A stretch of 64,000 bases of DNA from a virus. Lineage: Duplodnaviria > Caudoviricetes. Shown here piece by piece: positions 11,514 through 30,385 of the stretch (positions are counted from its first letter, which is position 1; every line of letters begins with the position of its first letter). Both the position numbers and the translations under genes were made by a program. Location: the IMG/VR virus record IMGVR_UViG_3300026159_000398; one strand, given 5' to 3'. The notes beneath the pieces are model-generated. The model saw nothing but the letters and a program-made list of their open reading frames with translations. It did not search any database and was not told the DNA's origin.

Positions 11514-11591
11514 GGAAGGACAGAGGGTAGCTCCCTTGACTCAGTACCCGAATTACTGAGTCTTACTTCCGATCTTATAATTATATTCGGG
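11514..11591 (+). ncRNA. Structured cis-regulatory RNA leader, copy 1
   Basis: GGAAG/CTTCC outer stem; AGGG-TAGCT-CCCT hairpin; GACTCAGTA/TACTGAGTC stem whose loop CCCGAAT complements ATTCGGG at the RBS. Confidence 0.7.
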
Positions 11592-11600
11592 ATAATTATC

Positions 11601-12134
11601 ATGTCATACGGCTACATTTATCTCATTAGAGACCATTTCACAAATAAAGTTTATGTTGGGCAAAAGAAAGGAGCACCAGAAAGTACTCAAAATTATTTTG
11701 GTTCTGGTCGTATTATTACAAATATTATTGCTCAAAGAAAACATTTATTAGAAAAAATTATTCTTGGTTATTGTGAATCGATGGATGAACTTAATAATGC
11801 TGAAAAATTATGTATTGAGTTTTTTCAAAGCAATAACAGAATTTATGGTTATAATTTAACAAATGGTGGTGAAGGATTTTCTGGATATCATTTTTCAGAT
11901 GAACATAAAAAACATTTGAGAAAAAATAAAAAGATGCCTCCACGATCAATTGAACATCAACGTAAATTAAATGAATCACATACAGGTAAAAAACGAGGAC
12001 CATTATCTGAAGAACATAAGCAAAAATTACGTGATGCTAAAATCAATTATGTTCCATGGAATAATGGAAAACATCTTTCAGAAGAACATAAAAGAAAAAT
12101 TAGTGAGTCAAATAAAAGGAGTAAAAATAAATGA
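11601..12134 (+). CDS. GIY-YIG homing endonuclease with NUMOD3-type repeats
   Basis: GYIY...VYVGQ...YFGSG, GYNLTNGGEG, HLSEEHKRKISES. Confidence 0.9.
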   Translation: MSYGYIYLIRDHFTNKVYVGQKKGAPESTQNYFGSGRIITNIIAQRKHLLEKIILGYCESMDELNNAEKLCIEFFQSNNRIYGYNLTNGGEGFSGYHFSDEHKKHLRKNKKMPPRSIEHQRKLNESHTGKKRGPLSEEHKQKLRDAKINYVPWNNGKHLSEEHKRKISESNKRSKNK

Positions 12135-14053
12135 TCATTCCTCTTCATGTGGAGTTCGAGAACTTTCTTTCGTTCCAGAAATTTCAGAAATTCGATTTTC
12201 AACCACAAGGAATTCACTATATTTATGGTATCAATCACGATGCCGATATAGACCATAATGATTTTACAGCCGATTCGTACAACGTTGGTGTAGGAAAATC
12301 TTCACTGGCGTTGGCACTGCAATACGCTTTTTATGGTGATATCCAGCGAAAAGTCAACAAAGACCAGATAATCAACAAATCTTCCAAAAAGAATTTATAT
12401 GTTGGATTGGAATTTGAAGTCACATCCACTGGTGTCAAATATCAAATAAAGCGCTACAGACGCCATGATGAATTTAAGAATCGATTATTCTTATTTGTTT
12501 GGAATGGAAAGAAATGGGATGACATCTCAGGTGTTGATCTTACTCAAACACAAGAATTCATTGACAAGATTATCATACTGGATATCCGAACTTTTGAGAA
12601 GACTTCATTAATGACTCGCGAAGACAAATTCCAGTTTCTTGAGCTTCCAACTCTGAATCGTGGCCAGATATTCGAGAACATCAGTCAAATAAATAAGTTC
12701 AAAGATTATTGGATTAAAGCCAAAGGACGACTGAAGACGTATGAAGATGCTTTGGTTGACATCAATAACAATATTCTCACAGAGACGACAATCATCAGGC
12801 GTGACAAGCAGTATATTGAAGAGATGAAAGAGAAAGATGAAGAGCGTCGTGATGAACTTCAAAATGAAATTGACGATCTTCAACTGGAATTGGATGAGAT
12901 TATTTCAATTGACATGTCTTTTGACGAAATAATCAGCAATATTGATTCATTTAAAAAGGTATTAAAGGCTCGTGATGAACTTGATGAGAAAATTTCCGCA
13001 TCTGAAGAATACAGAAAAATGTACGAACGAGAGATTAAATCACTCTCGCAAGACGTACAAGATCTTGAAAAAGAATTTGAAGGATGCAAAAATAAAGTTG
13101 ATAACTTTAAACCCAAGAAATGCCATAATTGTGGTGCGGTTCAAGAACAAGCACAATATGAAAAAGAGTACAACGAACTTGTCAACAGACGCGAATCTGT
13201 TTCAAATAAATTGGACTCAAAACGCAAGCTTCTTCAAAACACGCAAGACCGTATGTCTAAAGCCAATGAAATGTATGACCAACTTTATGCTGAAAGAACG
13301 AATAAAACTCATGAATTGGATAAAAGCATTCTTCCTGAATTCATAAAAGTCGCCATCATGGGCGATGATAACGACACAATTACAAATATTAAGACATTAA
13401 ACACAACAATTCAAACTAAAAAATCTGTATTAGCATCAATTGATAGTAAAGATGCGATCAACAAACTTCAAAAGGAAATTAAAGACCATCTGTATATTTT
13501 GAAAGATTGGAATGACAAGAAAAAAGACAATTTGAAGCAGCAATCGATTTACCAATTCTGGCTCAATGTGCTCGACTTCAAATCAGAAAATTCCTTAAAA
13601 CAATTCGTCATCACACAGATCATTCCGTTGTTTAACAATTTCGTGCAGCAAATGATTGATGTAGTTTATAAAGGCAATTTGATTATTTCATTTGATAATT
13701 TCTTTAATGAGACAATCTATTATCAAGGCGAAGAGTGGAAGTATGATGAACTCAGCACAGGCGAAAAGATGAAGTTGAATTTCTGCATCAACCTCGCCAT
13801 CTTCGACCTGACTCGCGTGAATCTTGATAGTTGCAGTGTAATTTTTATGGATGAAATTTTCACGAACGTTGACACACCAACAGTTATTGAATTTTTAGAC
13901 ATCATTCGTGAACGTTATGCTCAAGCGAATGGAATCTACATCATCAGCCATGAGCAGAAAGTCAAAGACAATTTAAAACCGAATTCTACTATTCTCATTG
14001 AGAAGAGAGACAGGGTTTCTGAAATTACTGAAATAAATACATTCAAGGAGTGA
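12131..14053 (+). CDS. gp46: Recombination ATPase, Rad50/SbcC-like (T4 gp46-like)
   Basis: NFLSF, Walker A GVGKSS, coiled coil with CHNC zinc hook, LSTGE signature, IFMDE, ISH. Confidence 0.95.
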   Translation: MIIPLHVEFENFLSFQKFQKFDFQPQGIHYIYGINHDADIDHNDFTADSYNVGVGKSSLALALQYAFYGDIQRKVNKDQIINKSSKKNLYVGLEFEVTSTGVKYQIKRYRRHDEFKNRLFLFVWNGKKWDDISGVDLTQTQEFIDKIIILDIRTFEKTSLMTREDKFQFLELPTLNRGQIFENISQINKFKDYWIKAKGRLKTYEDALVDINNNILTETTIIRRDKQYIEEMKEKDEERRDELQNEIDDLQLELDEIISIDMSFDEIISNIDSFKKVLKARDELDEKISASEEYRKMYEREIKSLSQDVQDLEKEFEGCKNKVDNFKPKKCHNCGAVQEQAQYEKEYNELVNRRESVSNKLDSKRKLLQNTQDRMSKANEMYDQLYAERTNKTHELDKSILPEFIKVAIMGDDNDTITNIKTLNTTIQTKKSVLASIDSKDAINKLQKEIKDHLYILKDWNDKKKDNLKQQSIYQFWLNVLDFKSENSLKQFVITQIIPLFNNFVQQMIDVVYKGNLIISFDNFFNETIYYQGEEWKYDELSTGEKMKLNFCINLAIFDLTRVNLDSCSVIFMDEIFTNVDTPTVIEFLDIIRERYAQANGIYIISHEQKVKDNLKPNSTILIEKRDRVSEITEINTFKE

Positions 14054-14056
14054 GTA

Positions 14057-14383
14057 ATGAAATTAAAAAAGAAAGCAAAGAAAGAACCAACAAAACAAGA
14101 ACTGATGGAAAGACTCTTTCTTGGCAAGAAAGTCATCAACGTCAAAGAAGATTTGAATTGGAGTACCATAAATCTTGAGTTAAATGACGGAACTCTGGTC
14201 ACAATCAAAGGCAGTTCACTCTCAATTTATTGGGGCGTAGCTGAAGATCGCATCGAAGATCTTAAAACAAGAATTGAACATGGCGAACAAGATGTCAACG
14301 AAAAGAAAACCGAAGTTGCAAGAATAGAAGCCATAGTAGGAGAATACAATGCCACGCAACATAGCACCAAAAAGAAAGCATAA
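14057..14383 (+). CDS. Hypothetical protein
   Basis: 108 aa ORF following gp46. Confidence 0.6.
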   Translation: MKLKKKAKKEPTKQELMERLFLGKKVINVKEDLNWSTINLELNDGTLVTIKGSSLSIYWGVAEDRIEDLKTRIEHGEQDVNEKKTEVARIEAIVGEYNATQHSTKKKA

Positions 14384-14741
14384 TGTCTATAATGGCCTTG
14401 ATGCGCGCGTCAAGAAAATTCGCGAAGCTGAAAAGGATTATGCAGAAAAAATTCTTGATGAGATGAGAGAAGCAGGTCGGCCAAAGAAAGGTCAGAGGTA
14501 TATTGAGCTTGAATCGATCATGAAGTTGCCTGTTGGCACGACTGAAAAAGAAATTCTTGGCAAGGTTGTCGTCAATGATGATCATACACCTAATGGTATA
14601 ATTTCATCTGCAAAAAAAGATGGAAGAGCCAAGAAAGGATTCCAGATGTGGCGTGTGACGTCGCAAATTACTGATGAGAAATTCATCAAAGCATTTTCAC
14701 AAATACCAGCATTCAAGAAGAAAATAAAGGTGATGAAGTGA
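14349..14741 (+). CDS. Basic hypothetical protein
   Basis: 130 aa ORF with AGGAG RBS. Confidence 0.65.
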   Translation: MPRNIAPKRKHNVYNGLDARVKKIREAEKDYAEKILDEMREAGRPKKGQRYIELESIMKLPVGTTEKEILGKVVVNDDHTPNGIISSAKKDGRAKKGFQMWRVTSQITDEKFIKAFSQIPAFKKKIKVMK

Positions 14742-14755
14742 GAGAATAAAAGGAT

Positions 14756-14774
14756 GGCCCCGTGTTAGGGGGCC
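14756..14774. terminator. Hairpin between convergent genes
   Basis: GGCCCC-N7-GGGGCC. Confidence 0.4.
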
Positions 14775-14803
14775 TAGAGTTATAGGAGTAAAAACAATGA
14801 GAA

Positions 14804-15583
14804 CTAGCAGGGCAGCAGGTACCCTTCCTTGATATAGTAGCGGAGGTTTTCGATGGACATGTAAGTGTCAGACCACTTGTCCCAATCTATGTTCATATTG
14901 CGTTCCTTCCGATATTCATGCTTGTAGCCGTTAATTACATGCAGATTCTTCCGGCCCATCTTGGTGATCTTGAGACCGGTGTCCTTATTGGCATAGAACC
15001 GGCGGCCTTGGCTGAAACGCTTGAGAACCAGGAATTCAGCACCTTCAAAGATAGCAGCGTCGGCGGCATCCACCTTTTTGGCTTCTTCGGCATCCTTGAG
15101 TGCCCTCTTCAGATCGCTCTCAGTATGAAGAGCTTCTTCCCAACCTAGGTCGTGCTTGTACTGACGAAGGGTCACTATGCGATTCATGATCATATTAACA
15201 ATCAGACCACCATCCTTCATGTCGTTGGCGAGAACGCCGAGCAGTTTGAGATACTCGAGGATTTCGCGGTCTGCGGCCGTGCAGTCAGAAGAGGACCAGC
15301 TTAGCTTGGGTACTATAGTAGGAACTTCATCCCTTGTGTAAGTCGTCCGCTTTTCGTACGTATAGATGTCGATGTCGTAAGTCCAGCTAGAATCAGGCTT
15401 GGGCATCATGAAACGAGTCCGTTCAACTTCCCAGACAACTTGACAATCTTCAAAGCCCATGGCTTTTATAGTGGCAGTCAGATCGGCGGTGGCATCTGCG
15501 TAAAACTTCTTCAGCAACGCCCGCTTTTCTTCAACGATGGCATTTTGCTTTTCAAGTAAATTTTGTATCGTGGCTATTTCCAT
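14804..15583 (-). CDS. Early hypothetical protein (GC-richer than its flanks)
   Basis: 259 aa, AAGGAG RBS, directly downstream of a sigma70-type promoter. Confidence 0.75.
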   Translation of the reverse strand: MEIATIQNLLEKQNAIVEEKRALLKKFYADATADLTATIKAMGFEDCQVVWEVERTRFMMPKPDSSWTYDIDIYTYEKRTTYTRDEVPTIVPKLSWSSSDCTAADREILEYLKLLGVLANDMKDGGLIVNMIMNRIVTLRQYKHDLGWEEALHTESDLKRALKDAEEAKKVDAADAAIFEGAEFLVLKRFSQGRRFYANKDTGLKITKMGRKNLHVINGYKHEYRKERNMNIDWDKWSDTYMSIENLRYYIKEGYLLPC

Positions 15584-15617
15584 TGTTTAACTCCTTTTTA
15601 TTTTTGGTTACAATAAT

Positions 15618-15646
15618 ATCATAACATTAAAAAAGGTTTTTGTAAA
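15618..15646 (-). promoter_or_regulatory. Host sigma70-type early promoter
   Basis: TTTACA-17 nt-TATGAT; near-identical copy at 16241-16269. Confidence 0.75.
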
Positions 15647-15651
15647 TACTT

Positions 15652-15870
15652 TTATTCGTATACTCTTTTCAATTCGATAAATCCGTTCCAACCCAACCCA
15701 TTCAGCTTCCCGCTATTATACTTTGCATGATACTTTTTGCCATTGTCTGCGGTAACATCAGCTTGGCCGCCATTGGTCATCCAAATGTTTTTTAACGTTT
15801 GGTATTCAAGGCTGAAATACTTATTAATTTCTCTCAAGGTATAAAGTCTTCTAGGTACTTTCGAATCCAT
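15652..15870 (-). CDS. Small early hypothetical protein
   Basis: 72 aa, GGAG RBS. Confidence 0.65.
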   Translation of the reverse strand: MDSKVPRRLYTLREINKYFSLEYQTLKNIWMTNGGQADVTADNGKKYHAKYNSGKLNGLGWNGFIELKRVYE

Positions 15871-15873
15871 GAT

Positions 15874-16050
15874 TTACTCCATATCCATGATGAAATACTT
15901 GAGAGCTTCGAATTGAGCGTTGATCGCTTCGTCCTTCGTGACATTGTACGCAGCCATGAAGTCCTTGTCGTCGTGAGTCTTGGCATATTCAACTATCAAC
16001 TGAAGATTCGCAACTCTATCGAGTAAAAAGTTCTTGCTTTTCTTGGTCAT
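15874..16050 (-). CDS. Small early hypothetical protein (58 aa)
   Basis: AAGGAG RBS; MTKKSKNFLLDRVANLQ... Confidence 0.65.
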   Translation of the reverse strand: MTKKSKNFLLDRVANLQLIVEYAKTHDDKDFMAAYNVTKDEAINAQFEALKYFIMDME

Positions 16051-16060
16051 TGTTGGCTCC

Positions 16061-16207
16061 TTATATCATCACGAAATAGTTGAAGCCGTGTTCTTGATAA
16101 TAGGCTTTGAGGCGGCCAAAAAAACGAGCAGTTATATAAGCCTTACCATTTTCAGCGTAAGCTATCACTTGGCCGTTCCGAGTTTTTCTTACTTTTAAGT
16201 TATTCAT
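16061..16207 (-). CDS. Small early hypothetical protein (48 aa)
   Basis: AAGGAG RBS; MNNLKVRKTRNGQVIAYAENG... Confidence 0.6.
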   Translation of the reverse strand: MNNLKVRKTRNGQVIAYAENGKAYITARFFGRLKAYYQEHGFNYFVMI

Positions 16208-16240
16208 TGCTCACTCCTTATTAACTTTGTTTGTAATAAT

Positions 16241-16269
16241 ATCATAACATTAAAAGTGGTTTTTGTAAA
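16241..16269 (-). promoter_or_regulatory. Host sigma70-type early promoter
   Basis: TTTACA-17 nt-TATGAT. Confidence 0.75.
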
Positions 16270-16380
16270 TACTTTTATTATTGAAAAATTGTAAATTTTT
16301 TTTCCTTAAAATAAATATAATTATATAGCCGCACCGCATAGGGCGGCATAACACATCAAACACTCATTGGAGGTTTTATT

Positions 16381-16839
16381 ATGACGTATCTTGATCAACT
16401 TTTTGACGAGGTATTTGATTCTTTTTTTACTTTTCCTGAACGATCAAGACAATTGTTAACTCAAATGTCACGTTCAGAATCACAGCCTCTTGAAAAACGC
16501 TTTCCTTCTCACCCTGTTTCAAACATCTATCTTGAAAAAGATGGAAAAGCCATCTTTGAAATTGCTGTTCCAGGTTTTGACAAAGAAGATATCAAGGTAG
16601 AATTTCTTGATGGGCTTCTTACTGTTAAAGCCCAAAGACAAGAAGAAATGGGCGATAAAGATGAACGTATGTATTTTTGTCAGCGACTGGCTCGTAGAAA
16701 TTTTGAAATTTCATATAAGCTACCAACAGCAGCTGACACAGAAAAGATTGAAAGCGAAATGAAAAATGGAATCTTGAAAATCACGATTCCAGTTAAAGAG
16801 GAAGAAAAGAAAATTCCAAAACAAATTCCAATTCAATAA
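16381..16839 (+). CDS. hsp20: Small heat-shock protein (Hsp20/alpha-crystallin)
   Basis: IAVPGFDKEDIKVE..GLLTV...RRNF...NGILKITIP. Confidence 0.93.
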   Translation: MTYLDQLFDEVFDSFFTFPERSRQLLTQMSRSESQPLEKRFPSHPVSNIYLEKDGKAIFEIAVPGFDKEDIKVEFLDGLLTVKAQRQEEMGDKDERMYFCQRLARRNFEISYKLPTAADTEKIESEMKNGILKITIPVKEEEKKIPKQIPIQ

Positions 16840-16851
16840 TCATGAGAACGA

Positions 16852-16924
16852 GGGCCCTGCAAAACAGGGCCCGACTTATGTTCACATACACACAAAAAAA
16901 GCTCCTCTTTTTTAAGGAGGAGCT
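16852..16924. terminator. Two hairpins between the convergent hsp20 and tail tube genes
   Basis: GGGCCCTG/CAGGGCCC, and AGCTCCTC/GAGGAGCT with a T-tract on the minus strand. Confidence 0.6.
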
Positions 16925-16958
16925 CAGGAAAATATGAGAACTATATGAAATAATCCGC

Positions 16959-17675
16959 TTATGCTGTACCCAAGATGGCCCCTGCATTTTGATAACGTTC
17001 GAGCGGATTAGCTGCTGTGTAATTGTATGTGTAAATTTCAGCAGGATAGATGTTGTCACATGCAAATTCAACATTGACTTTTCTGAATTCACCAGCCGCA
17101 GCATCGTGGTCTGGCATATTGACGTTGACCGGATAGAGGTTTACGATTTCATACTTTTGAAGGTATGGAGGACCACCATGCTCGTCGCAATATTCATCAG
17201 AATATCCAGGAGCGTCAGGTCCATAGACATAAAAGTTTGCAATTGGGAGAACATAGTCTTGTTTGAATCCAATCGCACCAGTTCTCTTATCACCAACGAA
17301 AGCTCTCCAAAGCTGCATGATAGCAGACGTAGAACCATTGACGTAGTCAACGAAGTCTACGTTGAACATATCCATTGGCGCAAATTTTGTGACAGTCTTG
17401 AATTGGTCGTTGAAACGAGGAATTTCAGCGACTTCCAATTTTGGAAGTGGCAAGTTCGATTTGATCAACGAAATTTCGACTGAAGTTGCTGGGTCTCCAC
17501 CAAGAGCGTTCTTGACTGCATTATAAAATGTCTGAACGCCGAACAAAGGGGAGATCGGAGCTTTATTTAACAATAGATCTGTAAGGCCAATGAATCTCAA
17601 CGAGAAACGGTTTGTGTTGATTGTTTGTTCGTTATATACCTTCTTTATCCTGAAGATGTTGCCTTTGCCGGCCAT
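16959..17675 (-). CDS. gp19: Tail tube protein (T4 gp19-like)
   Basis: NRF..., S-x-LP, W...TGAIG..QDY, YEIVNLYP, VEFACD; downstream of the sheath gene. Confidence 0.8.
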   Translation of the reverse strand: MAGKGNIFRIKKVYNEQTINTNRFSLRFIGLTDLLLNKAPISPLFGVQTFYNAVKNALGGDPATSVEISLIKSNLPLPKLEVAEIPRFNDQFKTVTKFAPMDMFNVDFVDYVNGSTSAIMQLWRAFVGDKRTGAIGFKQDYVLPIANFYVYGPDAPGYSDEYCDEHGGPPYLQKYEIVNLYPVNVNMPDHDAAAGEFRKVNVEFACDNIYPAEIYTYNYTAANPLERYQNAGAILGTA

Positions 17676-17783
17676 ACTAAATACCTCTTAATTTTCGAAA
17701 ATAGAGTAATTACTACATTTATTTTACGTTCATAATGAAAAAGATACTATTTTTTTCTCGTTAATTAAATATAATTCTATATA

Positions 17784-17863
17784 CGGAAGGACAAGCAGGC
17801 ATGCCTGATAAGTTGTCACCTCAATTTATCTAACTTCCGCTACATTTTTTATAATTAAGGTGA
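17784..17863 (+). ncRNA. Structured cis-regulatory RNA leader, copy 2
   Basis: CGGAAG/CTTCCG; CAGGCATGCCTG hairpin; GATAAGTTG/CAATTTATC stem whose loop TCACCT complements AGGTGA at the RBS. Confidence 0.7.
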
Positions 17864-17868
17864 TAATT

Positions 17869-18453
17869 ATGAACCAACCGTACGGCTACATTTATTTAAT
17901 TTACGATCATTTTCATAATCATTGTTATATTGGGCAGAAAAAAGGTTTAGTAGAAAAAACAACAGATTATTTTGGTTCAGGAAAAATCATTTTTTCAATT
18001 ATCAAAAAACGTAAACATCATTTAGAAAAACGAATTCTTGGTTATTGTGAAACAAAAGAAGAATTAGATGAGGCAGAAAAAGTATGTGTAGAATTTTATC
18101 AAAGTAATGATAGAAGATATGGTTATAACATTACTACTGGTGGTTCTGGTGGAAGTTTTAAAGGAATAAATAAAGGCAGAAATTTTTCCAACGAACATAA
18201 AAGCAAATTAAGTCAAAAACGCAGATTAAGAATTATTTCTGGAGCAACTAAACACAAAATTAGTGAATCATTAAAAGGTAAACAAAACAATCTTTGGACA
18301 GAAGAAAGTAGAAAAAGAAATAGTAACTCTCATTTAGGCAACCAAAATAAATTAGGTTGTAAATTAAGCCCAGAATCTCGTCAAAGAATTAGTCAATCGC
18401 AACTTGGCAAAAAGCGAGGACCATACAAAAAGAGCCTAGATCAAAAAATCTAG
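17869..18453 (+). CDS. GIY-YIG homing endonuclease, antisense between tail tube and sheath
   Basis: MNQPYGYIY...YIGQ...YFGSG, GYNITTGG; paralog of 11601. Confidence 0.9.
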   Translation: MNQPYGYIYLIYDHFHNHCYIGQKKGLVEKTTDYFGSGKIIFSIIKKRKHHLEKRILGYCETKEELDEAEKVCVEFYQSNDRRYGYNITTGGSGGSFKGINKGRNFSNEHKSKLSQKRRLRIISGATKHKISESLKGKQNNLWTEESRKRNSNSHLGNQNKLGCKLSPESRQRISQSQLGKKRGPYKKSLDQKI

Positions 18454-18460
18454 GCTCTTT
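18429..18460. terminator. Bidirectional intrinsic terminator
   Basis: AAAGAGCCTAGAT-N6-ATCTAGGCTCTTT flanked by A/T tracts. Confidence 0.7.
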
Positions 18461-18481
18461 GTTTTACAATATTTTATTTAG

Positions 18482-21400
18482 CTAAAATTGTACTATAACC
18501 TGTGTATCACGCATCACGCTGATAACTTTGATCTTTTCAATCTTCTTGATTGGTGTCCAAACGATCATTGAGATCATACCGCTACTTGCTTCAATAATTG
18601 CAGGGTCAGCATCAATCATTGCAGGGTCGGTAATAACTGCCCAATCTTTATCAATACCTTCTTCTGGTTTAATCGCTTGAGCGTTAATAAGAGGAGTGAT
18701 AATGTCTTTCTTAATAACAGCTTCAAATTCGTCTCTCGTATCTTTTGTGATAGGGAGGTAGAAGAAGTCAGGAACGATATTCATCAGCATGCGTTTCATG
18801 AACAATGAAACTCTCATGACGCCGATACGATTGTATGCGTTCTTTGTTCTTTGAGTCGTCTTCTGACCGTCAATGAAGAATCCTTGTTTGTTTGTGTAAA
18901 CGATTGGGTTGATATTGTTTCCAATATTGTCATCGTATGCACGACCTTTATCTTCTTCTGTAAGGTAAATTGCTATATCGTTGACATTTGCAAGAGGAGC
19001 AAATTTACCAGCAGCTGGAGTATATTGGTTGAATTCACGGTCAACAGCAACAATCGCAGGAACGGCTACTCGTGAAGGTGGCATCCATTGTTCGCTTGTA
19101 ACTGTAGAAGCTGTGTCAACCAAAACCCATGGGAAGTAAGTAACAAGGTACTTAGAATCCAATGTCATATTAAGAATGCTTGGAAGATCACCATTGTGCC
19201 AGTAAATCATTTGGTCGATAGAACCAAGCAACTTACCTGCTACAGTTTCAGGTGGGTCAACAACACCGAAGCAGTCTTTGCGGTATTCGCAAATTTCTTG
19301 GATTTTTGCAATAACGATTGCTGTGCTGTTTCCAGTTACGCAAAGCATGTCAACATCAAAGATGTCCATGTTTTTGTATTCGTTAAGAGCTGCAGAATAC
19401 TGAGCATCAGTTACTGCGTTGCTGATACCTGAAGTACCACCATTCAATTGATATGTTCCATCAGGAATTGGGTCAATTGTAGTTGGTGAACCAACAGGAA
19501 GAGTATAAGTAACGTAGTTCTGAAGTCTTGTGTCATTGTTGATCAAAGTTCCGAAGAACGTATTAGCTGCAACAGTAGAACTGTAATTCGTGATACGAGC
19601 AATCAAAGATGTGTCATTCCAGAATTCCATGTAAGGAATTCCATTTGAAGAACCTTTGATCATCTTGATGTTGTTGCCATCAGTACCAGTGTACTTAGCA
19701 GTCAGTGTACCCATATTCAGAGAAGCAGCTTCGCCTGCGTAAACGATATCTGTGTAGTCATAAGCTGCATCATTATCTTTTACTGCGAGGAAGTCAAGAA
19801 GATTTCCATTTTGTGCGTAGCGATAAACGCCAACGAACAAGTTGTCGATAGTCATCGCAGTAGCGGCTGCAACTGTACCGACTCTGAAAATCAGTGAGTA
19901 AGTTCCAGCAGCTTTTGAGTAGAATCCAAGTCTTATAGTTCCAGTTGTTGCAGGAACAGCTTGACTTGCGATTGTTACGCCATTATTGTCAACAATGTCA
20001 GCCTTAATGTTTGTAGCTGCGGCTGGAGCAGCTGACAATGTAAAATACATTTCCATGTATGTGTATGCTGGAGCTGTGAAGTGAACACCTGCTCCGCTTG
20101 TTGCGATTGCAGCTGAAGTTGTAGTAACAACCAAGTTTGCAGTTCCAAGAGCTGCAGAAACTCCAACTACTGGGCTAAGAGCAGCAGCAGGAGTTGTAGT
20201 CGTTGGTGTAGTACCTGGAGTAATGAGAATATCTCCACTTCCATTGATTGTAACTGTTGCTGCGCTCCATGTTCCTTCAGCTGCTCTTACTGCTGTTTGC
20301 ATGATTGCAAGTACTTGTGTCCAAGTATAACTTACACCAGCTGCCAAAACAGTAGAAACATCAACTGCTGAAACGTTAGGAGTTCCAGTTGCCAATGAGA
20401 ACTTATAAGTTCCTGCTGGTAGTGGGCAATGATCAGAACCAACGATACCATCACCGCTGAAAACTATTGTACAAGAATCAGTTCCAGCTGTGTAAGTAAT
20501 TGTTTGACCAGAGAAAAAGTCAAGAGAAACTTTCAAATCATCACTGAGAGTTGTGTATGAAGGAGAACCAGCGGCGAAGTCACCACCATTATCTGTACCA
20601 AGAAGGTTTAGAGCGGTTTCCATTCCATCGGTCAGCAAGTTTTGAGTAGGTTGGTCTTTGATTTCAATTGTGTAAGAAGAACCTTGATCGTTAGTTTGTA
20701 TTTCAAATTTACCAGAAGTTCCAAGGAAAGCAGTCGCATTAGCAGTGATTGCTGCATTGATTGCAGTTACAATAGCTTCTGCACTTGTATTAGCAGAAGT
20801 TGAAGTGCTTGGGTTCGTTGCTGTTACACTTGGAAAAACAACTGGGAAGCTCGTAATTCTTATAGAAGAACTTGCACCATATTCGTTGCTATTGATTGAG
20901 ATGGCGTCTGTTCCACTTTTACGAATGATGTTTTTTGGGTCGTAACCAGTCATACCAGTTACAGTACCAATAACTTGTTTCTTAAGAGCGTAAATCAGTT
21001 TGTCGATGTATGACATAACTGTCGCGCCAGTTAATCCACCGTAATTTTCGTCAGTTACTGCACCAACGCCTGTGAGCTTGCACAGAATGTCGCTTGAAGA
21101 ACTGATGATATATTGGTATGCAACACCATCAACAAACAATTCAATGTAGTCGCCTGCTGTAAAATTTGCAGCAGTCAGAGATTCGCTTGTGATTGCAGAA
21201 CAACGTGCACTCTTTGAAAGAGTTACAGTAGTGTCTCCACCACCATTCAATTCAACAACGAAGATATTGTCTGAGTCGTTGACTTTCAGTGATTTACCAG
21301 AAATGGCTTCTGCACCAACAAACTTGGCTGCAACAGCGGCTTTAGCAAGCAGTTTAGAAGCTGCAGTGTCAGAACCGTCTGTGATACGTGTGAAGAAGCA

Positions 21401-21655
21401 AGAAGGAACTACACCAAGAACAGCGGCTGCTGTTATGCCTGAATAATCTTTTGCCTCGACGTCGCGATTGACTTCAGAACCAAAATAGCTCTTGAAGTTT
21501 TTTATGATTTGTGTAGGAACGTTGACTGGTCCCCAGTTTGCAACTCCGACGAATGCAACTTTTGTACCAGTAATTCTGTCTACTAAAGTGGTAACTTCGA
21601 CACGTTCTTCGTATCCAAAGCCTTTACCAATTATATCGTTTACAGTTTCAGACAT
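18482..21655 (-). CDS. gp18: Contractile tail sheath protein with a large internal insertion (T4 gp18-like)
   Basis: AFVGVANWGPVN at the N-terminus; RKDCFGVVD, YFPWV, MPPS, INPI, GQKT, RIGVMR at the C-terminus. Confidence 0.92.
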   Translation of the reverse strand: MSETVNDIIGKGFGYEERVEVTTLVDRITGTKVAFVGVANWGPVNVPTQIIKNFKSYFGSEVNRDVEAKDYSGITAAAVLGVVPSCFFTRITDGSDTAASKLLAKAAVAAKFVGAEAISGKSLKVNDSDNIFVVELNGGGDTTVTLSKSARCSAITSESLTAANFTAGDYIELFVDGVAYQYIISSSSDILCKLTGVGAVTDENYGGLTGATVMSYIDKLIYALKKQVIGTVTGMTGYDPKNIIRKSGTDAISINSNEYGASSSIRITSFPVVFPSVTATNPSTSTSANTSAEAIVTAINAAITANATAFLGTSGKFEIQTNDQGSSYTIEIKDQPTQNLLTDGMETALNLLGTDNGGDFAAGSPSYTTLSDDLKVSLDFFSGQTITYTAGTDSCTIVFSGDGIVGSDHCPLPAGTYKFSLATGTPNVSAVDVSTVLAAGVSYTWTQVLAIMQTAVRAAEGTWSAATVTINGSGDILITPGTTPTTTTPAAALSPVVGVSAALGTANLVVTTTSAAIATSGAGVHFTAPAYTYMEMYFTLSAAPAAATNIKADIVDNNGVTIASQAVPATTGTIRLGFYSKAAGTYSLIFRVGTVAAATAMTIDNLFVGVYRYAQNGNLLDFLAVKDNDAAYDYTDIVYAGEAASLNMGTLTAKYTGTDGNNIKMIKGSSNGIPYMEFWNDTSLIARITNYSSTVAANTFFGTLINNDTRLQNYVTYTLPVGSPTTIDPIPDGTYQLNGGTSGISNAVTDAQYSAALNEYKNMDIFDVDMLCVTGNSTAIVIAKIQEICEYRKDCFGVVDPPETVAGKLLGSIDQMIYWHNGDLPSILNMTLDSKYLVTYFPWVLVDTASTVTSEQWMPPSRVAVPAIVAVDREFNQYTPAAGKFAPLANVNDIAIYLTEEDKGRAYDDNIGNNINPIVYTNKQGFFIDGQKTTQRTKNAYNRIGVMRVSLFMKRMLMNIVPDFFYLPITKDTRDEFEAVIKKDIITPLINAQAIKPEEGIDKDWAVITDPAMIDADPAIIEASSGMISMIVWTPIKKIEKIKVISVMRDTQVIVQF

Positions 21656-21670
21656 GTAAGTTCTCCTTGA

Positions 21671-21847
21671 TTATATTTCTTCAATAGTGATTAGTTTCTT
21701 TGCTTGAAGCGCTTTTAGACTTTGAGGAATTTCATCCATTTGAATTGTGATCGACTGTCCTTTCTTTGGTATGACGACTGATTGCGTAGGGCTTACAGGA
21801 ACAGGAGTCGAAACATACAATTTACTCGTTATTTTAAAAGTTTTCAT
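21671..21847 (-). CDS. Small hypothetical protein (58 aa)
   Basis: GGAGG RBS; MKTFKITSKLYVSTPVP... Confidence 0.6.
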   Translation of the reverse strand: MKTFKITSKLYVSTPVPVSPTQSVVIPKKGQSITIQMDEIPQSLKALQAKKLITIEEI

Positions 21848-21913
21848 TAGTCCTCCGAATATAATGCGTTCGATAATATATTAAAAGATTTGGTTGAATA
21901 ATAACGCAAAAAA

Positions 21914-22648
21914 TTAGTGTCCAGTTGCAATTTCATCTTTGATGACATCAACAACATTATCACCATCATAAACTTGCATTTCTGAGCCAATATAAATTTT
22001 GTCATAAACTGGAACTCTGTATACATTGAAGGGAACAATCGTATGAGCGCTAATTGTAAAAGTAGTTTTGATTGCGTCACGTGTTTCCTTCATTTCCAAA
22101 CCTTCAATATTGGTTTCGTTCGCAATATTGTCAGAAAGTTTCAAAGGCATCAGCAAATAACTAGTTTTGTCGTTAATGACCTTTTGACCATTGACTATCG
22201 ACGTGTCTGGAAAATACACCAATGACATTTCACCCAAAGGAAAACATTGGAGCAATTCATGAATGATACAATCACGTTCACGTAATGTGTTTGTCCAGAG
22301 GTTGAAACTCCATGTGACATCGTAGTGCATTGGTGCACGAGTCATCGCAACAGTCTTTGTTACAGGGTCATAAGAATCAGGGTCCCAAATATGGATGCCA
22401 ATTCTTTCGCGTGTTTTATCACGTTGATTTTCTGCTTCCCAGAAATTCAACATAGGAAGCACGATTTTATTATTAAATTTATTCTGAAGATAACGGAATG
22501 CCGCTCTTGGTGTTCCATAAACGATTTGCAAAGTCAATGGAGTCATTTCATTATTCCATTTGATCGTTTGAAAATGCACCTTGAAGAAGTCATACAGTTC
22601 AAGAACGTATATGCCCCAAAGATATTGTGGAAGTACTTCTTCTATCAT
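21914..22648 (-). CDS. Tail completion/sheath stabiliser (gp15-like)
   Basis: IVYGTP..AF, LPML, P..YDVTWSFNLW; position between neck and sheath genes. Confidence 0.65.
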   Translation of the reverse strand: MIEEVLPQYLWGIYVLELYDFFKVHFQTIKWNNEMTPLTLQIVYGTPRAAFRYLQNKFNNKIVLPMLNFWEAENQRDKTRERIGIHIWDPDSYDPVTKTVAMTRAPMHYDVTWSFNLWTNTLRERDCIIHELLQCFPLGEMSLVYFPDTSIVNGQKVINDKTSYLLMPLKLSDNIANETNIEGLEMKETRDAIKTTFTISAHTIVPFNVYRVPVYDKIYIGSEMQVYDGDNVVDVIKDEIATGH

Positions 22649-23896: not shown

Positions 23897-23946
23897 GAAT
23901 TTCTCCAATGTAAATTGTTTCTAATGATTATATATTAAACACGACT

Positions 23947-25107: not shown

Positions 25108-25643
25108 TATAGATACCCAATAAAATCCTTAATTGATTGTGGAACTTCAGCCATTGGTGTTTGTTCAGCATAAATGTGCCAGTTGAGATACTTCATATTG
25201 AAGTTGTCAAATGGAACTACAGAACCAATTGTATAAAATACGTTGCGGTAGTTTTGATCATCCACAACATAACTAATTCTAAAAATGTCGCCAGCAACTG
25301 GTTGAGTATGGTTGCAAAGTAGAAAATCATCGACGTTCGTCACGCCAGTTATTTCTTCGATTTGTTCAGCACCTAAGCGAGTCAACTCAACCAGAATTGG
25401 GTTGATTTCAATGAACATATAAACTCTATTAGGGTCTTTGAACGTATGAAGCGCAGTGCCTGATGATTTTTCACCATAAATAGTATCAAGTTGATCTTGA
25501 GAAGCTACAGTCGCCGTTCTATCAAGACTCCAATAATAAATCAATGGAGAGATTGCTCTTATAAAATCCGCGTCGATTGTAGAAGCGAGAGCGTACTCCG
25601 GGGACCTTGGCTCGAACACACGAGCATTATTAGGTCTATACAT
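25107..25643 (-). CDS. Neck/head-closure protein (gp14-like)
   Basis: YY...D..YGE...LTRLG...PVAGDIF pattern and synteny. Confidence 0.65.
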   Translation of the reverse strand: MYRPNNARVFEPRSPEYALASTIDADFIRAISPLIYYWSLDRTATVASQDQLDTIYGEKSSGTALHTFKDPNRVYMFIEINPILVELTRLGAEQIEEITGVTNVDDFLLCNHTQPVAGDIFRISYVVDDQNYRNVFYTIGSVVPFDNFNMKYLNWHIYAEQTPMAEVPQSIKDFIGYL

Positions 25644-26202
25644 GTCGAGCCTCCTTATTTAATTTAATCATGTTTATTTTACTTTGTTGTCTGCCACGCT
25701 CGCTTTTATTGTATGTAATAATTCTATTTTTTAATGATTCTCTTTCTTCATCACTAACAAATCTTTTTTTACCAAGTTTAGCTATAGAAAGTTTGTGTCT
25801 GGTTTCTAAAGATGCTTTAGTGCCTTTGTTGTGTGCCGGTTTTCCTTTTTTTGCTGCAGACATTTTTTGTCTTGCTTCTAATGACATTTTTCTGCCTTTT
25901 AATTTGGAACCATTACCACCATCACCACCAATAGTTTCATTATATCCATTTTTATAAGTATCAAATAATTGAATAAAATGTTTTTCAAGTTGTTTTAAAT
26001 CATCTTTATTATCTGATTCTTTAATAATTTCAAATTTTATATTCTCAATTCCATATTTTCTTAGAACGTTGACAATTGAACGTTTACAATTTGGAGTGTT
26101 GATTTCTCTTACATATCGAGAATGTAATCGTACTAAAGATGAAGTCCATTTTCCAATATAAACTTTATTATTATTTGGGTTAGTGTATTTATAAATAAAC
26201 AT
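25636..26202 (-). CDS. GIY-YIG homing endonuclease
   Basis: MFIYKYTN...VYIGK, GYNETIGGDG, NUMOD3-like repeats. Confidence 0.9.
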   Translation of the reverse strand: MFIYKYTNPNNNKVYIGKWTSSLVRLHSRYVREINTPNCKRSIVNVLRKYGIENIKFEIIKESDNKDDLKQLEKHFIQLFDTYKNGYNETIGGDGGNGSKLKGRKMSLEARQKMSAAKKGKPAHNKGTKASLETRHKLSIAKLGKKRFVSDEERESLKNRIITYNKSERGRQQSKINMIKLNKEARHV

Positions 26203-28127
26203 TACACACCTTGCATTTTAGTTTTGAATTTGTCGATCGCTCCCGCTACTTTATATGCTGCTTTGACTCCTTTTCCAGCAGAACTTAAATAAGCATTCTG
26301 CATAATTTTATGTAACGAGGTTTCATTAAATTGATTCAATGCTCTTTCTGTGTCGGCTTTGGCTTTGATTATCGCTTCGTTAATTTTGGTAGCATTTTTA
26401 TTTAATACAGTGGCGTTAAAAATTTCACTACTAAAATCAGTAGATTGTTTGCTGACATTAAACTGATTAAGTATATTTTTGAATTCATCGTTCTTTGCTT
26501 GTTTCAAAAGAACATCAACAATTTTATTAAATTTAGCCTGATCAGACAACTCGTTTAAATTGGTTGGAATTGCTGATGTAAAATTTTGTAGTAATTTGCC
26601 AAGTGATTTGAATTGACCACCAATACCCTTGGCTATTGTGTCAAGAACACCTTCTTCAAACACCTCTTCATTAAAGGTTTTATTAGAAACAACCAGCGAT
26701 TTGAAATGTTGGGCGAATGATGACAAGAAAGACATAACTGTTGCCATCGTAATCATTGCTACTGCCTGACGCATTGCATTGTTTTTTGCTACTGAGAGAG
26801 CATTAACATCTGGTTTTGTTTGTTGCTGCACCGGTTGTTGAGGTTGATCTTTTGGAGCAGCCTCTTTTTGTGATTGTTTTGTTGATGTTGTTGCCGGTTT
26901 TGCTGGTGCGCCAAGTTGTTGTTTTTGAGCTGATGGTAAATTTTTATTTAGTGCATCAGTTACAGCATCCAATTCACCCATTTCACGATAAAATTTGTGA
27001 TTTGGTAATCTTATTTTTGAAACATCTCCAAAGAAAACATGGTCATTAACCGTATCCATAAGTGTGCGTTCTTCTAGAGCTGGTTTAACAGAACCAATTG
27101 TTTGTCCTTGAAAGACTTTGTTTGCTGCTACATTAAGCATTTCAGTCAAAGAAGAAATTTTGCCGGATAATGTTTTATAAGCACCACCCATAATTTCATC
27201 TAATTTTCCAGTTTGTTTAAGAACATCCACAACATCAGAAGCTGATAAATCACCAGTAAAATTATTCGCTACCGTAGAACCAAATATTTTGGAGAATGTT
27301 TTTTCTTTATCATTCAGTACGCCATCAATCAATTTGGCAAATGTTTTAAATTTATCTGGACCATATCCAAGTTCAGCTAATTGATTGAAAAGAACTCCAT
27401 GAATTATTCTTCCGCCTCTATCAGAATCAAAGAATGTTTTTAGTGCGGTTTGTGGGTCATGAAAATCCTGCTTTACTCGTTCCTGAATATTTGAATAAGT
27501 ATCAGAAACGAATTTTTCTGCATCTTGCGCATCGGCAAGAGAATTTTTAAATTCTTGGCTACCAGTATTCATAGCGACAAGAATTTTATTTACTACACCA
27601 GCTTTAGAGGCACTCTTTGGAGTAGCTTCTTTTAATGCAGCCACAGAAAGAGGTTTTTCGCCATCACTGGTTTGAATTGATTTATCATAATCTGCAAGAA
27701 GTGTTGATTTCAGTTGAGGCGTTTCTTGCATTTGTTTAATGATGTCTTCATCTTTGACTGTCTTGCGCTTTTCAGCAAGTCCGTTTACAAGATAACTAAA
27801 CATTGCGGCACGAGAAAAATTATTTATTTCTCTTTTTAATGCAACGCCAACTTCATCTTTTGTTTTTGTTTCAGTTGGAGTTTCTGTTGGTTGTGTACCT
27901 TGCTCTAGACCTTGAATAATTGGATCTGCACCTCCAGCTGGGTCTGTTGGGTCTCCAGCAGGTTTTTCTGCTTCCATGAAGATTTTGAATGGGCGTTCGA
28001 AAGCAACATCCAAAAGTAGTTCATTGAACGTTTTGGTGTTCTTTTCAAGCTCCTCACGATACGGCTTGATTTGTTCTGCTTGCTTGAGGTGTTGTTCAAG
28101 AATCTCGTAATAGAATTTTTCAACCAT
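26202..28127 (-). CDS. Large helical hypothetical protein, candidate internal head protein (641 aa)
   Basis: N-terminus MVEKFYYEILEQ; low-complexity linkers. Confidence 0.7.
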   Translation of the reverse strand: MVEKFYYEILEQHLKQAEQIKPYREELEKNTKTFNELLLDVAFERPFKIFMEAEKPAGDPTDPAGGADPIIQGLEQGTQPTETPTETKTKDEVGVALKREINNFSRAAMFSYLVNGLAEKRKTVKDEDIIKQMQETPQLKSTLLADYDKSIQTSDGEKPLSVAALKEATPKSASKAGVVNKILVAMNTGSQEFKNSLADAQDAEKFVSDTYSNIQERVKQDFHDPQTALKTFFDSDRGGRIIHGVLFNQLAELGYGPDKFKTFAKLIDGVLNDKEKTFSKIFGSTVANNFTGDLSASDVVDVLKQTGKLDEIMGGAYKTLSGKISSLTEMLNVAANKVFQGQTIGSVKPALEERTLMDTVNDHVFFGDVSKIRLPNHKFYREMGELDAVTDALNKNLPSAQKQQLGAPAKPATTSTKQSQKEAAPKDQPQQPVQQQTKPDVNALSVAKNNAMRQAVAMITMATVMSFLSSFAQHFKSLVVSNKTFNEEVFEEGVLDTIAKGIGGQFKSLGKLLQNFTSAIPTNLNELSDQAKFNKIVDVLLKQAKNDEFKNILNQFNVSKQSTDFSSEIFNATVLNKNATKINEAIIKAKADTERALNQFNETSLHKIMQNAYLSSAGKGVKAAYKVAGAIDKFKTKMQGV

Positions 28128-28137
28128 GGGAAATTCC

Positions 28138-28905
28138 TTAATTTTGTAATAGAGGCAGAGGTCTTTGCATTCCTTTTAATTCAGTCTCAAGTTTTTCTAT
28201 TGAGGCTGCTGCTTCTGTTTTTAAAGCTTCACCGTCTGCGGCCAAGTTTGTTCCTGTTGCATTGACACCACTAAACTTGCTTCTAATAGTACCAAGCATC
28301 ATCTTAGCACAAGCTAGAGCATATTTCTTTATCCAAATTTGCTCTTCAGCTTCAGACTCTGTTAATGTGCCTTTGTATAAAATGCCAACATCTGTGACTG
28401 GTTGATTGATAGGAAAGAGATAAATCTTGTTGTCCAAGATTTCCCACATCTTGTCAATGCCAACAATCTTCTTGATATCTTCAAGGCGTTGTAAATATGT
28501 ATAGTATAAAGGCAAATTAAACTGTGAAAAAATATTAAGAATACCCTGTTGGTTGAAAACAGGTATGACAGTTCCTTCGAATTCTCCGATAAAACCACCA
28601 GCTGCGATACCAGAACCAAGGCTATCAAAAAAGCTGGATGGAAATAGAATATCAACAATCATTTCTTTATTCAATCCAGTTGGAATATCAAATGGATTTG
28701 AAACAATCGTTTGATGAATAAGACGATAATCTACAGTTGCGTATCTATGATACATTGTCAAGGCGTCGATGATGGCAGTTCTGATATGTTCTTCTGTCAA
28801 TTCAACGCGTACAAGTGGATATCCTAAAGAATATAAAATATAATTCTTAAGATTGACGTAGTGATTGGTGTATTCAGCGGCGTTTACATCTTGATTTATA
28901 TACAT
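28138..28905 (-). CDS. gp13: Neck/head-tail adaptor (gp13-like)
   Basis: LKNYILYSLGYPLVRVEL...WIKKYALA..K..LG.IRSKF. Confidence 0.85.
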   Translation of the reverse strand: MYINQDVNAAEYTNHYVNLKNYILYSLGYPLVRVELTEEHIRTAIIDALTMYHRYATVDYRLIHQTIVSNPFDIPTGLNKEMIVDILFPSSFFDSLGSGIAAGGFIGEFEGTVIPVFNQQGILNIFSQFNLPLYYTYLQRLEDIKKIVGIDKMWEILDNKIYLFPINQPVTDVGILYKGTLTESEAEEQIWIKKYALACAKMMLGTIRSKFSGVNATGTNLAADGEALKTEAAASIEKLETELKGMQRPLPLLQN

Positions 28906-29570
28906 TTTAATCTCTCAGAAATAGTGCGATGTGAAGTATCAAATAATACGGCGATCTTTCTTAAACTATAACCTTCTTCACGAAGTTGTTTTATTTGATT
29001 GTTATTGATATCATTTCTAAATGCTGGATTTTTGTTTCCTTTGGCAACGCCTCTTTCTTTTCGTGTTTTACTAATTGCCTCACGCATTGTTTGATCATAT
29101 CCTCTATGGTTTTGTTTTCTCGATAAAGATCTTTTTTGTAACGATTCTTTAGATAAAACAACCGTTTTTCCTAAACGTGCTTTACTTAATTTTTGTTTGT
29201 GAGCTTCAGTTTTTGGACCAGTATATCCTTCGCCACCATTTGTTAAATTAGTTAACGGTCCTAAAACCAAGTCATTTCTGCCTATTTGAGAAATAAGTTG
29301 TTTTTCTAATTCTAAAGCATCTTGAAACAATAAATTTTCTTTAATATGAACAACAATAGGTCTCATTTCGCATGATAAGATTTTTTTTATTTTATTTGTT
29401 TTATGTTTATTTGGGTCGTTTTTTAAATTTGATTTTCTGAGATGTGCTGTATCTCGTGAACCACTTCCGACGCCAACATAAAATGGTTCAAAATCAAAAT
29501 AGTTTTCTTGATAACAAAAATTTCCGGGTTTTCGTGGGTCAAGATAAATGTAAATGTAGTGTTTATTCAT
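28896..29570 (-). CDS. GIY-YIG-family homing endonuclease with C-terminal HTH
   Basis: YIYIYLDPRKP...PFYVGVG..R, GPLTNLTNGGEG, GYSLRKIA. Confidence 0.85.
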   Translation of the reverse strand: MNKHYIYIYLDPRKPGNFCYQENYFDFEPFYVGVGSGSRDTAHLRKSNLKNDPNKHKTNKIKKILSCEMRPIVVHIKENLLFQDALELEKQLISQIGRNDLVLGPLTNLTNGGEGYTGPKTEAHKQKLSKARLGKTVVLSKESLQKRSLSRKQNHRGYDQTMREAISKTRKERGVAKGNKNPAFRNDINNNQIKQLREEGYSLRKIAVLFDTSHRTISERLKCI

Positions 29571-29576
29571 TTTCCC

Positions 29577-30221
29577 TTATTGAGGTTGAATTTGCAGGCA
29601 CCAGCCTGATTTGTCTTTGTTTTTTGCAAAGAACGTGTCCCATGAATAGCGAACATTGAAGCCTGATGCTTCATATCCTGGAGATAATGCGTATCCGTAT
29701 GGGTCAAGAACAAAAACATCACGCGTTTCGTCATCGTAACCAACGCAGCAATTGATGTGACCAGCAACTTTATGACCATATTTGGCGTTTGCGCTGCTGA
29801 AGTTTCCACAAATGACTTGAGGAATATTGGCATTGTCAATCAATGCACAAACTTCTTCAAAAGAGATATGATCTGAAAATTCTGAATCATATCCAATCTT
29901 ATTCATTAAATCATCGAACATTTTTTCTTCTACTTTACCAACGAGCCATGATTTTTCAAAATAGTCTTTTGTCCATGGTCCAACAGCTTTCAGCATCCAT
30001 TGTTTTATGGAACTGGTTTTTGCCATTTTTGTCAAGTAGTCTTCTATTTGTTCTTCATCAATTCCAAGATCTCTTGTAGTTTTACCAGTCATAGTGAGAA
30101 TATAATCAATACACATTGCTACTGAGGTAGGAAAGCATGTAACAAATGGATTATATTTATTGTTTCTTTGCGTGTGGTAAAAATCGCTTAAAGCAACTTT
30201 AGTTACGTAGTGTGCACTCAT
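29577..30221 (-). CDS. Papain-like peptidase (C39-like family)
   Basis: Q..., TCFPTS (Cys), GHINCCVGYD (His), VLDPYG (Asp). Confidence 0.8.
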   Translation of the reverse strand: MSAHYVTKVALSDFYHTQRNNKYNPFVTCFPTSVAMCIDYILTMTGKTTRDLGIDEEQIEDYLTKMAKTSSIKQWMLKAVGPWTKDYFEKSWLVGKVEEKMFDDLMNKIGYDSEFSDHISFEEVCALIDNANIPQVICGNFSSANAKYGHKVAGHINCCVGYDDETRDVFVLDPYGYALSPGYEASGFNVRYSWDTFFAKNKDKSGWCLQIQPQ

Positions 30222-30304
30222 ATTGATTCTCCTGTAGATATATTTAATGAATTATAGAAAATGAGCATAAAAATTTACGTGTGTCTTTAATATAATTCTA
30301 TATC

Positions 30305-30380
30305 GGAAGGACAAGAACTGATCATTCTGACTCGGTACCTCGAATACCGAGTCTTACTTCCAACTTTTAATTATTCGAGG
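30305..30380 (+). ncRNA. Structured cis-regulatory RNA leader, copy 3
   Basis: GGAAG/CTTCC; AGAA-CTGATCA-TTCT; GACTCGGTA/TACCGAGTC stem whose loop CCTCGAA complements TTCGAGG at the RBS. Confidence 0.7.
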
Positions 30381-30385
30381 TAATT

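Follow-up and report, generated by a model that had tools for sequence, protein, structure and literature searches.

Homing endonucleases must be made sparingly, and to our knowledge the control of the free-standing ones is largely open outside T4. Sequestration of the ribosome-binding site (RBS) is documented for I-TevI, I-TevII, I-TevIII and segB of T4 and for mobE of phage Aeh1, and a review of T4 names translational control an area of ignorance (PMC2988022). Here we describe an RNA leader in a 64,000-nucleotide (nt) stretch, hereafter the window, of the 205-kb IMG/VR virus record IMGVR_UViG_3300026159_000398 (G000), where it stands in front of three genes for GIY-YIG-type nucleases. Our comparisons support the view that this leader is a selected three-way-junction (3WJ) RNA whose third helix (P3) ends in a loop (L3) that pairs with the Shine-Dalgarno (SD) sequence of the following gene, and our model is that such a cis-acting 5' leader probably locks the RBS of homing-endonuclease mRNAs and keeps the synthesis of the nuclease low.

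Both the leader and the hairpins of T-even homing-endonuclease genes are cis RNA structures that precede the gene of a phage homing endonuclease, cover its SD and stand beside a promoter of the late type (PMC2988022), with repression being predicted in our case. The T-even elements are single, local and stable hairpins with the SD in the stem, whereas the leader has its SD in the loop of a weak hairpin, where it is paired with the distant loop of a 3WJ; their late promoter lies inside the hairpin and gives an unlocked transcript, whereas the conserved promoter of the leader precedes the entire structure, and the two share no sequence similarity. ColE1 RNA I/RNA II and HIV TAR/TAR* are fully complementary loop-loop kissing complexes, and the leader offers a structural analogy in that two hairpin loops of 6 to 7 nt are complementary throughout, but those complexes act in trans, in antisense replication control or as model complexes, while the kiss of the leader is intramolecular and targets the SD. 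In the preQ1-II, SAM-II and guanidine-II riboswitches, tertiary pairing with a hairpin loop likewise decides access to the SD; these riboswitches bind their ligands in pockets, and their loops are defined and conserved (ACGR in guanidine-II), in contrast to the leader, whose loops vary freely as long as they match and for which there is no sign of a ligand or pocket and no match in Rfam. Cis-repressed riboregulators and toehold switches also use a programmable upstream sequence that pairs with its own RBS, and the 19 natural loop:SD pairs resemble their orthogonal variants. The synthetic devices, however, are linear stems opened by a trans RNA, while this genome encodes no trans-activator: no 12-mer complementary to any P3 or L3 occurs elsewhere in it, save on the element's own opposite strand and in two chance hits, and the idea of such a partner was rejected for this reason.

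All three copies reported by the initial annotation are present in the window and agree with its description almost to the base; the starts it gave for copies 1 and 3 are correct, while copy 2 begins at 17785 and not at 17784. Each consists of the promoter-like motif AATATAATTNTATA, a gap of 1 to 3 nt, GGAAGGACA, the second helix (P2), P3, the junction strand U-W-A and the sequence CUUCC, which pairs with the initial GGAAG to close the first helix (P1); P3 is in all three a 9-bp helix that begins with GA and finishes with TC. The assertion that the P3 loop is the exact reverse complement of the SD region of its gene holds for each of them (CCCGAAT/ATTCGGG, TCACCT/AGGTGA and CCTCGAA/TTCGAGG). 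All features are on the plus strand. Copy 1 follows the motif AATATAATTATATA (11498–11511), from whose spacing the transcript is predicted to start at or 1 to 2 nt before P1, and its 3WJ (11514–11570), defined by the minimum-free-energy fold and covariation, contains P1 (11514–11518/11566–11570), GACA (11519–11522), P2 (11523–11537), P3 (11538–11546/11554–11562), L3 (CCCGAAT, 11547–11553) and the J3/1 strand TTA (11563–11565). A fourth hairpin, P4 (11577–11599), has arms of ATAATTAT (11577–11584 and 11592–11599) around a loop, L4 (ATTCGGG, 11585–11591), which contains the SD and complements L3 exactly, and nuclease gene 1 follows at 11601–12134 (ATG at 11601; 177 amino acids [aa]; a NUMOD3 match and the GIY-YIG-type N terminus MSYGYIYLI). 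In copy 2, the motif (17768–17781) precedes a 3WJ (17785–17838) with P1 at 17785–17789/17834–17838, P2 at 17794–17806, a P3 that includes G·U pairs at 17807–17815/17822–17830 and L3 (TCACCT) at 17816–17821; P4 (17850–17871) has the 5' arm TATAATTA (17850–17857), L4 (AGGTGA, 17858–17863) and a 3' arm (17864–17871) that overlaps the ATG at 17869 of nuclease gene 2 (17869–18453; 194 aa; NUMOD3 and a GIY-YIG-type N terminus). Copy 3 has its motif at 30289–30302 and its 3WJ at 30305–30361, with P1 at 30305–30309/30357–30361, P2 at 30314–30328, P3 at 30329–30337/30345–30353 and L3 (CCTCGAA) at 30338–30344; the arms of its P4 (30368–30386) are TAATTA (30368–30373 and 30381–30386), L4 (TTCGAGG) occupies 30374–30380, and nuclease gene 3 (30386–30925; 179 aa; GIY-YIG plus NUMOD3) has its ATG at 30386.

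The leader is not confined to the window. An exact pattern found a fourth copy outside it, and a covariance model built from 15 copies, the kind of search the initial annotation had proposed, raised the number to eight in the 205-kb record; the newly found copies in this genome carry the compensatory P1 changes AGAAG/CUUCU and GAGAG/CUCUC. At least 10 other contigs add copies, found by pattern scans of IMG/VR and metagenomes and filtered by structure and by the model, and 23 distinct copies from the record and from other viral or metagenomic contigs were parsed; a junction-like element in contig L037 (4452–4516) and the weak L276 were excluded from the statistics. Loose DNA patterns proved to be mostly chance matches (118 viral stretches; 106 metagenome stretches, with about 10 true copies among them), and none of 50 pattern matches in 185,579 prokaryote genomes passes the covariance model.

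Each copy has a core made of a 5'-terminal 3WJ with P1, an invariant GACA, P2, a P3 of 7 to 9 bp and U-W-A, the junction strands being GACA(N), U/UU and UWA, and this core is followed by a short linker and by the weak hairpin P4, whose arms consist of A and U only (ATAATTAT/ATAATTAT and variants), whose loop of 6 to 7 nt carries the SD and whose 3' arm ends at the AUG or 1 to 4 nt before it. Of the 23 copies, folded singly with RNAfold, about 20 gave the 3WJ and 16 the hairpin with the SD in its loop, and L4 came out as a loop of 6 to 7 nt in 14 copies by RNAfold alone. The initial annotation had proposed a pseudoknot that sequesters the RBS; the pairing between loop and SD stands, but not its form as a loop paired with a single strand, since the SD sits in the loop of P4, a hairpin that had been overlooked, so that L3 and L4 pair at long range as two loops that form a kissing complex. 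By the stem parse, both loops measure 6 to 7 nt and are fully complementary in 19 of the 23 copies.

As alignments made with MAFFT or with the covariance model leave L3 and L4 out of register, the kissing pair was tested separately, by a purpose-written comparison of cognate with noncognate pairs. In all but one of the 23 copies, L3 and the SD region share a perfect Watson-Crick complement of at least 6 nt, usually 7 nt; these 22 copies use 19 loop sequences, and the match ends 1 to 10 nt before the AUG (5 to 9 nt in 19 of the 22). Loops match their own SD over a mean of 6.83 nt and the SDs of other copies over 3.25 nt, and no permutation of the loop-target assignment in 100,000 reached the observed sum. 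The duplex energies, which like those given below are nearest-neighbor values without loop geometry, are -9.0 kcal/mol for cognate and -3.4 kcal/mol for noncognate pairs.

Nested helices give the same picture in an alignment that was fitted to the model and is thus biased toward the structure: 91% of cells pair, compared with 70% in shuffled alignments and 32 to 53% when the partners are slid, and 20 of 25 nested pairs have changed on both sides (0 of 500 shuffles). P3 shows covariation in 8 of its 9 pairs and pairing in 96% of cells, and in P1, 3 of 5 pairs change on both sides (GGAAG/CTTCC, AGAAG/CTTCT and GAGAG/CTCTC). The same helices are found in an independent MAFFT alignment and in single-sequence folds, and the compensatory covariation that the initial annotation saw in three copies is borne out, with compensatory changes in P1, P2, P3 and the loop:SD pair. 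P4 is nearly invariant in the main group and covaries in divergent members, with a compensated extra pair in L266, ATAATG/CAUUAU in L267, UUCUA/UAGAA in L268 and G·U pairs in L206. The G·U pairs in P3 and P4 indicate an RNA on the sense strand, and because the unpaired bases are invariant while the nuclease proteins are only 34 to 48% identical, the leader is under purifying selection and not just recently copied.

Two observations concern the hairpins themselves. Among the 23 copies, 18 have a self-complementary word at the apex of P2 (AGCU, GGCC, UGAUCA or UUGCAA); counted by loop type, these are 8 of 11 compared with 2.7 expected, the exceptions being GGCA, UUGCU and UAGU; these palindromes could reflect RNA dimerization via P2 or be a remnant of perfect DNA palindromes. 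In addition, a copy in genome G002 (L272:1501–1605, minus strand), which lies before a 37-codon open reading frame (ORF), has an L3 of 22 nt with 14 nt complementary to the SD region, and by its predicted pairing it is an extreme form of the lock.

The motif in front of the leaders was rightly described as promoter-like, but it is not peculiar to these cassettes. AATATAATTNTATA lies 1 to 3 nt before each GGAAGG and has 9 matches in the window compared with 0.28 expected, and the 13-nt motif ATATAATTNTATA has 19 sites in the genome compared with 2.65 expected. Because it also precedes the terminase large-subunit, baseplate-hub and Hsp20 genes and the helicase region, we regard it as a general phage promoter, and no conserved -35 element accompanies it. 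By analogy with T4 TATAAATA and in view of the structural genes behind it, the promoter is probably of the late class, and with T4-like spacing the transcript would start at or 1 to 2 nt before P1. Further sites in the window are at 16314–16327, at 45255–45268 (both strands) and, on the minus strand, at 50826–50839 and 57465–57478, and others in the genome include G000:9266, 96482 and 157772. Fourteen other copies of the motif in the genome have no junction, which occurs there only before nuclease genes. At several genes, the motif is so near the SD that the predicted mRNA begins at the SD and has a very short leader. A GIY-YIG gene outside the window (G000:C1:18975–19026, plus strand; start at 19024) shows the classical T4-type arrangement, its SD being paired by a 10-bp hairpin (CCTCTTAATA/TATTAAGAGG) with the phage promoter motif AATATAATTTAT inside; since the motif lies within the hairpin, promoter-proximal transcripts would be without the 5' arm.

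Taken together, these features lead us to propose the following sequence of events. Transcription from the cassette's own promoter probably begins at P1, judging from the spacing, and the first 54 to 57 nt would fold into the 3WJ that displays L3, a loop of 6 to 7 nt. L3 would thus be made and folded before the SD emerges, so that the lock is pre-positioned; about 5 to 15 nt further, the SD would appear inside L4 of the weak A/U hairpin P4, and the two loops, matched in size, would form an intramolecular kissing complex. L3:L4 is predicted to be stabler than the pairing of the SD with 16S rRNA (L3:SD, -9.0 kcal/mol; anti-SD at the 16S 3' end:SD, -5.9 kcal/mol; averages, with L3 stronger in 20 of 23), and the 30S subunit would therefore be excluded, leaving only a trickle of nuclease. 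We infer that the leader would in this way repress translation and restrain nuclease synthesis on an otherwise strongly transcribed cassette. As to how the lock is released, spontaneous breathing, which would make the leader a constitutive throttle, has in our estimate slightly less than an even chance; a factor or an RNase cut in the A/U linker is a less probable route, and release by way of shorter transcripts seems unlikely.

Several points weigh against this lock. A simple hairpin would suffice for the purpose, and the conserved GACA and UWA are left unexplained, as are the junction copies that have no lock. The energies disregard loop geometry, the shortest linker (4 nt) makes the geometry of a kiss tight, and P4 by itself is weak (-1 to -5 kcal/mol). 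Moreover, the sequence of P4 is nearly invariant in the main group whereas P3 varies freely, and the P4 sequence may therefore carry a second function.

Junctions without a lock are found above all in a related 204-kb phage (G001; IMGVR_UViG_3300041402_000314), where six of them (L271, L275, L279, L280, L281 and L282, each from position 1501) directly follow TTGACA-N17-TAnAAT promoters. They fold as P1/GACA/P2/P3/UWA, with covariation in P1, and no complement of L3 was found downstream of any of them. Their P2 loops carry a conserved, anti-SD-like GCUCC/ACUCC, and directly behind P1 comes a conserved TATTTATA; L281 resembles a short noncoding transcript with a terminator at its end. In the set of 23, the sole copy without a loop:SD match stands before a NUDIX gene and not before a nuclease gene (L231:8104). 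The existence of lock-free junctions suggests that the junction probably has a function of its own, be it 5'-end protection, binding of a shared factor or scaffolding of the kiss. The excluded element L037:4452–4516 (IMGVR_UViG_3300011005_000049) is an orphan with a junction-like P1, GACA, a P2 of 7 to 8 bp, a P3 of 7 bp and TTA; no gene lies downstream on its strand, while on the opposite strand a 352-aa HNH-like ORF has its 3' end immediately next to it, and the element is possibly the remnant of a replaced cassette.

The near-invariance of P4 while P3 drifts fits a constraint on primary sequence, as would be expected of a T4-style two-transcript switch, in which TATAATTA in the 5' arm of P4 would be an internal promoter, transcripts from it would start at the SD without L3 and the 5' arm and be translated, and longer upstream or read-through transcripts would stay locked. 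Such a mechanism is documented for I-TevI, segB and mobE (PMC2988022), the hairpin with an internal promoter at G000:19024 uses the same logic in the same genome, several genuine copies of the promoter motif place the predicted start at the SD, and a promoter-like AATATAATTAAAA lies in the linker of L268. We nevertheless think it unlikely: the internal sites score -15 to +6 bits compared with 18 to 27 bits for the promoter sites of the phage (on a matrix from sites selected by a regular expression, which is somewhat circular), several copies, e.g., copy 2, would have their predicted starts within the SD or beyond it, and the divergent L267 and L268 keep the P4 stem with unrelated sequences, while two promoters of one class would provide no temporal switch. 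At the level of DNA, every helix is also an inverted repeat, and the P2 apices are often palindromic (AGCT, GGCC and TGATCA), as would suit protein-binding repeats or recombination sites on which the RNA fold is incidental; we consider this highly improbable, as the G·U pairs in P3, P4 and P1 work only in sense-strand RNA, helix sequences differ among copies of one genome with pairing kept, and what L3 complements is in every case the SD, spaced from the AUG as a ribosome-binding site should be. A ribozyme was rejected as well, as the junction strands have no hammerhead-type core (CUGANGA...GAAA) and no Rfam ribozyme model matches.

The remaining alternatives start from what the lock leaves unexplained. 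The invariant GACA and UWA, the G-C and A-U pairs with which P3 begins and the conserved apex of P2 exceed the needs of a plain anti-SD hairpin, and junctions without a lock, before the NUDIX gene and in G001, suggest a function of their own; the 3WJ might accordingly sense a phage or host protein or a small molecule that alters the presentation of L3 and opens or closes the lock. We regard such a regulated switch as doubtful, because by eye no conserved alternative pairing or terminator was noted (no formal search for one was made), the unpaired conserved core of only about 10 nt is small for a ligand pocket, Rfam riboswitches and protein-binding leaders give no match, and the same core stands before unrelated nuclease families, for which a shared factor could still account; autoregulation by each cognate endonuclease is made less likely by this sharing of one core among unrelated nucleases. 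A base-paired 5' end protects against 5'-end-dependent decay, and P1 lies within 1 to 3 nt of the predicted transcript start in every copy, after two types of promoter. With lock-free junctions at hand, the 3WJ could mainly stabilize or insulate the 5' end of the transcript, with the L3:SD pairing being a secondary addition in nuclease cassettes. This is to us a rather unlikely reading, for the cognate covariation of L3 and SD in all but one copy needs a selective reason of its own, and in this genome the junction is absent from all promoter-motif copies other than those before nuclease genes. A combination is also conceivable, if improbable, in which the 3WJ would be an autonomous 5'-terminal module that binds a shared phage or host factor or dimerizes via the palindromic P2 apex, and in which L3 would have been reprogrammed copy by copy as a private anti-SD. 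Translational locking of the RBS by L3 therefore stays the reading that we prefer.

The genes behind the leader are mostly GIY-YIG/NUMOD3 endonucleases. That all three genes in the window are of the GIY-YIG type was recognized correctly in the initial annotation, but the leader does not belong exclusively to such genes: in the set as a whole it also precedes a NUMOD3 plus TnsA-like nuclease (G000:18062), a C2H2 zinc finger plus TnsA-like nuclease (L267) and a C2H2 protein (L268), and it has been recombined onto three unrelated nuclease types. With about 20 matches to the GIY-YIG/NUMOD3 nuclease family, the genome is unusually rich in homing-endonuclease genes, and only 8 of these sites have leaders. 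Further matches in the window, all on the minus strand, are at 25636–26202, 35837–36394 and 58967–59515, and the arrangements found at leaderless nuclease genes are a promoter that abuts the SD, a T4-like hairpin (G000:19024) or direct juxtaposition to an upstream ORF.

That the leader travels with the endonuclease gene, as had been supposed, is supported by a strain contig (run X1, record 3) with flanks about 98% identical to the window. It covers 14342–17675 and then 18495–22504, joining 17675 to 18495, so that the whole of cassette 2 (promoter, leader and gene; 17676–18494, plus strand) is missing and 69 other nt stand in its place. Because all three parts are missing together, promoter, lock and nuclease gene behave as one mobile cassette. 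Gene 1 is inserted between a gp47-like (Mre11/SbcD) and a gp46-like (SbcC/Rad50) gene, and contig L123, a fragment of another phage, likewise carries a cassette at the gp47|gp46 site. At 12131–12134 in the window, the stop of gene 1 overlaps the start (12131) of the gp46-like gene, an overlap by which translation of this essential gene behind the cassette may be either coupled to the insertion or shielded from it.

The phage that carries these cassettes is uncultured and T4-like in its genome context, with a Gp23-type capsid protein and with portal, terminase, baseplate-hub and tail-sheath genes, and the DNA sequencing runs that contain at least about half of the record's sampled words are biogas-fermenter and anaerobic-digester metagenomes. 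Its major capsid protein is at most 27% identical to those of named T4-like phages; the nearest phage by this protein (66% identity), with a length of 191 kb, contains two GIY-YIG genes but lacks the leader. Neither megablast nor blastn found a match to the leader plus gene start in the GenBank phage collection. Rfam 15, run over the 64-kb window, gave no matches at the gathering threshold, and with permissive E values the best subthreshold scores for copy 1 (12 to 18 bits, E values of 0.8 to 5) are far below it, in keeping with the earlier remark that the element belongs to no named family. Likewise, a search of the literature for kissing or loop-loop control of homing endonucleases or of the SD in phages found no such description. 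That the synthesis of a phage homing endonuclease can be controlled by concealing the SD is known already; the new elements are the RNA family, its 3WJ, the hairpin with the SD in its loop and the copy-specific kissing pair, none of which was found in Rfam 15, in the literature searched or among the GenBank phages.

Our findings add an uncatalogued structured RNA family with unusually clean covariation, in which the SD of phage nuclease genes would be held by an intramolecular loop-loop kiss, an arrangement found neither in Rfam 15 nor in the literature searched. Its 19 natural, mutually nonmatching lock-and-key loop pairs could become orthogonal translation dampers in synthetic biology. If the junction were indeed an autonomous module, the leader would be a natural, modular and programmable kissing-loop riboregulator, and factor binding or dimerization would gate nuclease translation, restricting it, for example, to late infection or to mixed infection. 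In this phage, the comparison of strains shows that promoter, lock and nuclease gene move together as a single cassette.

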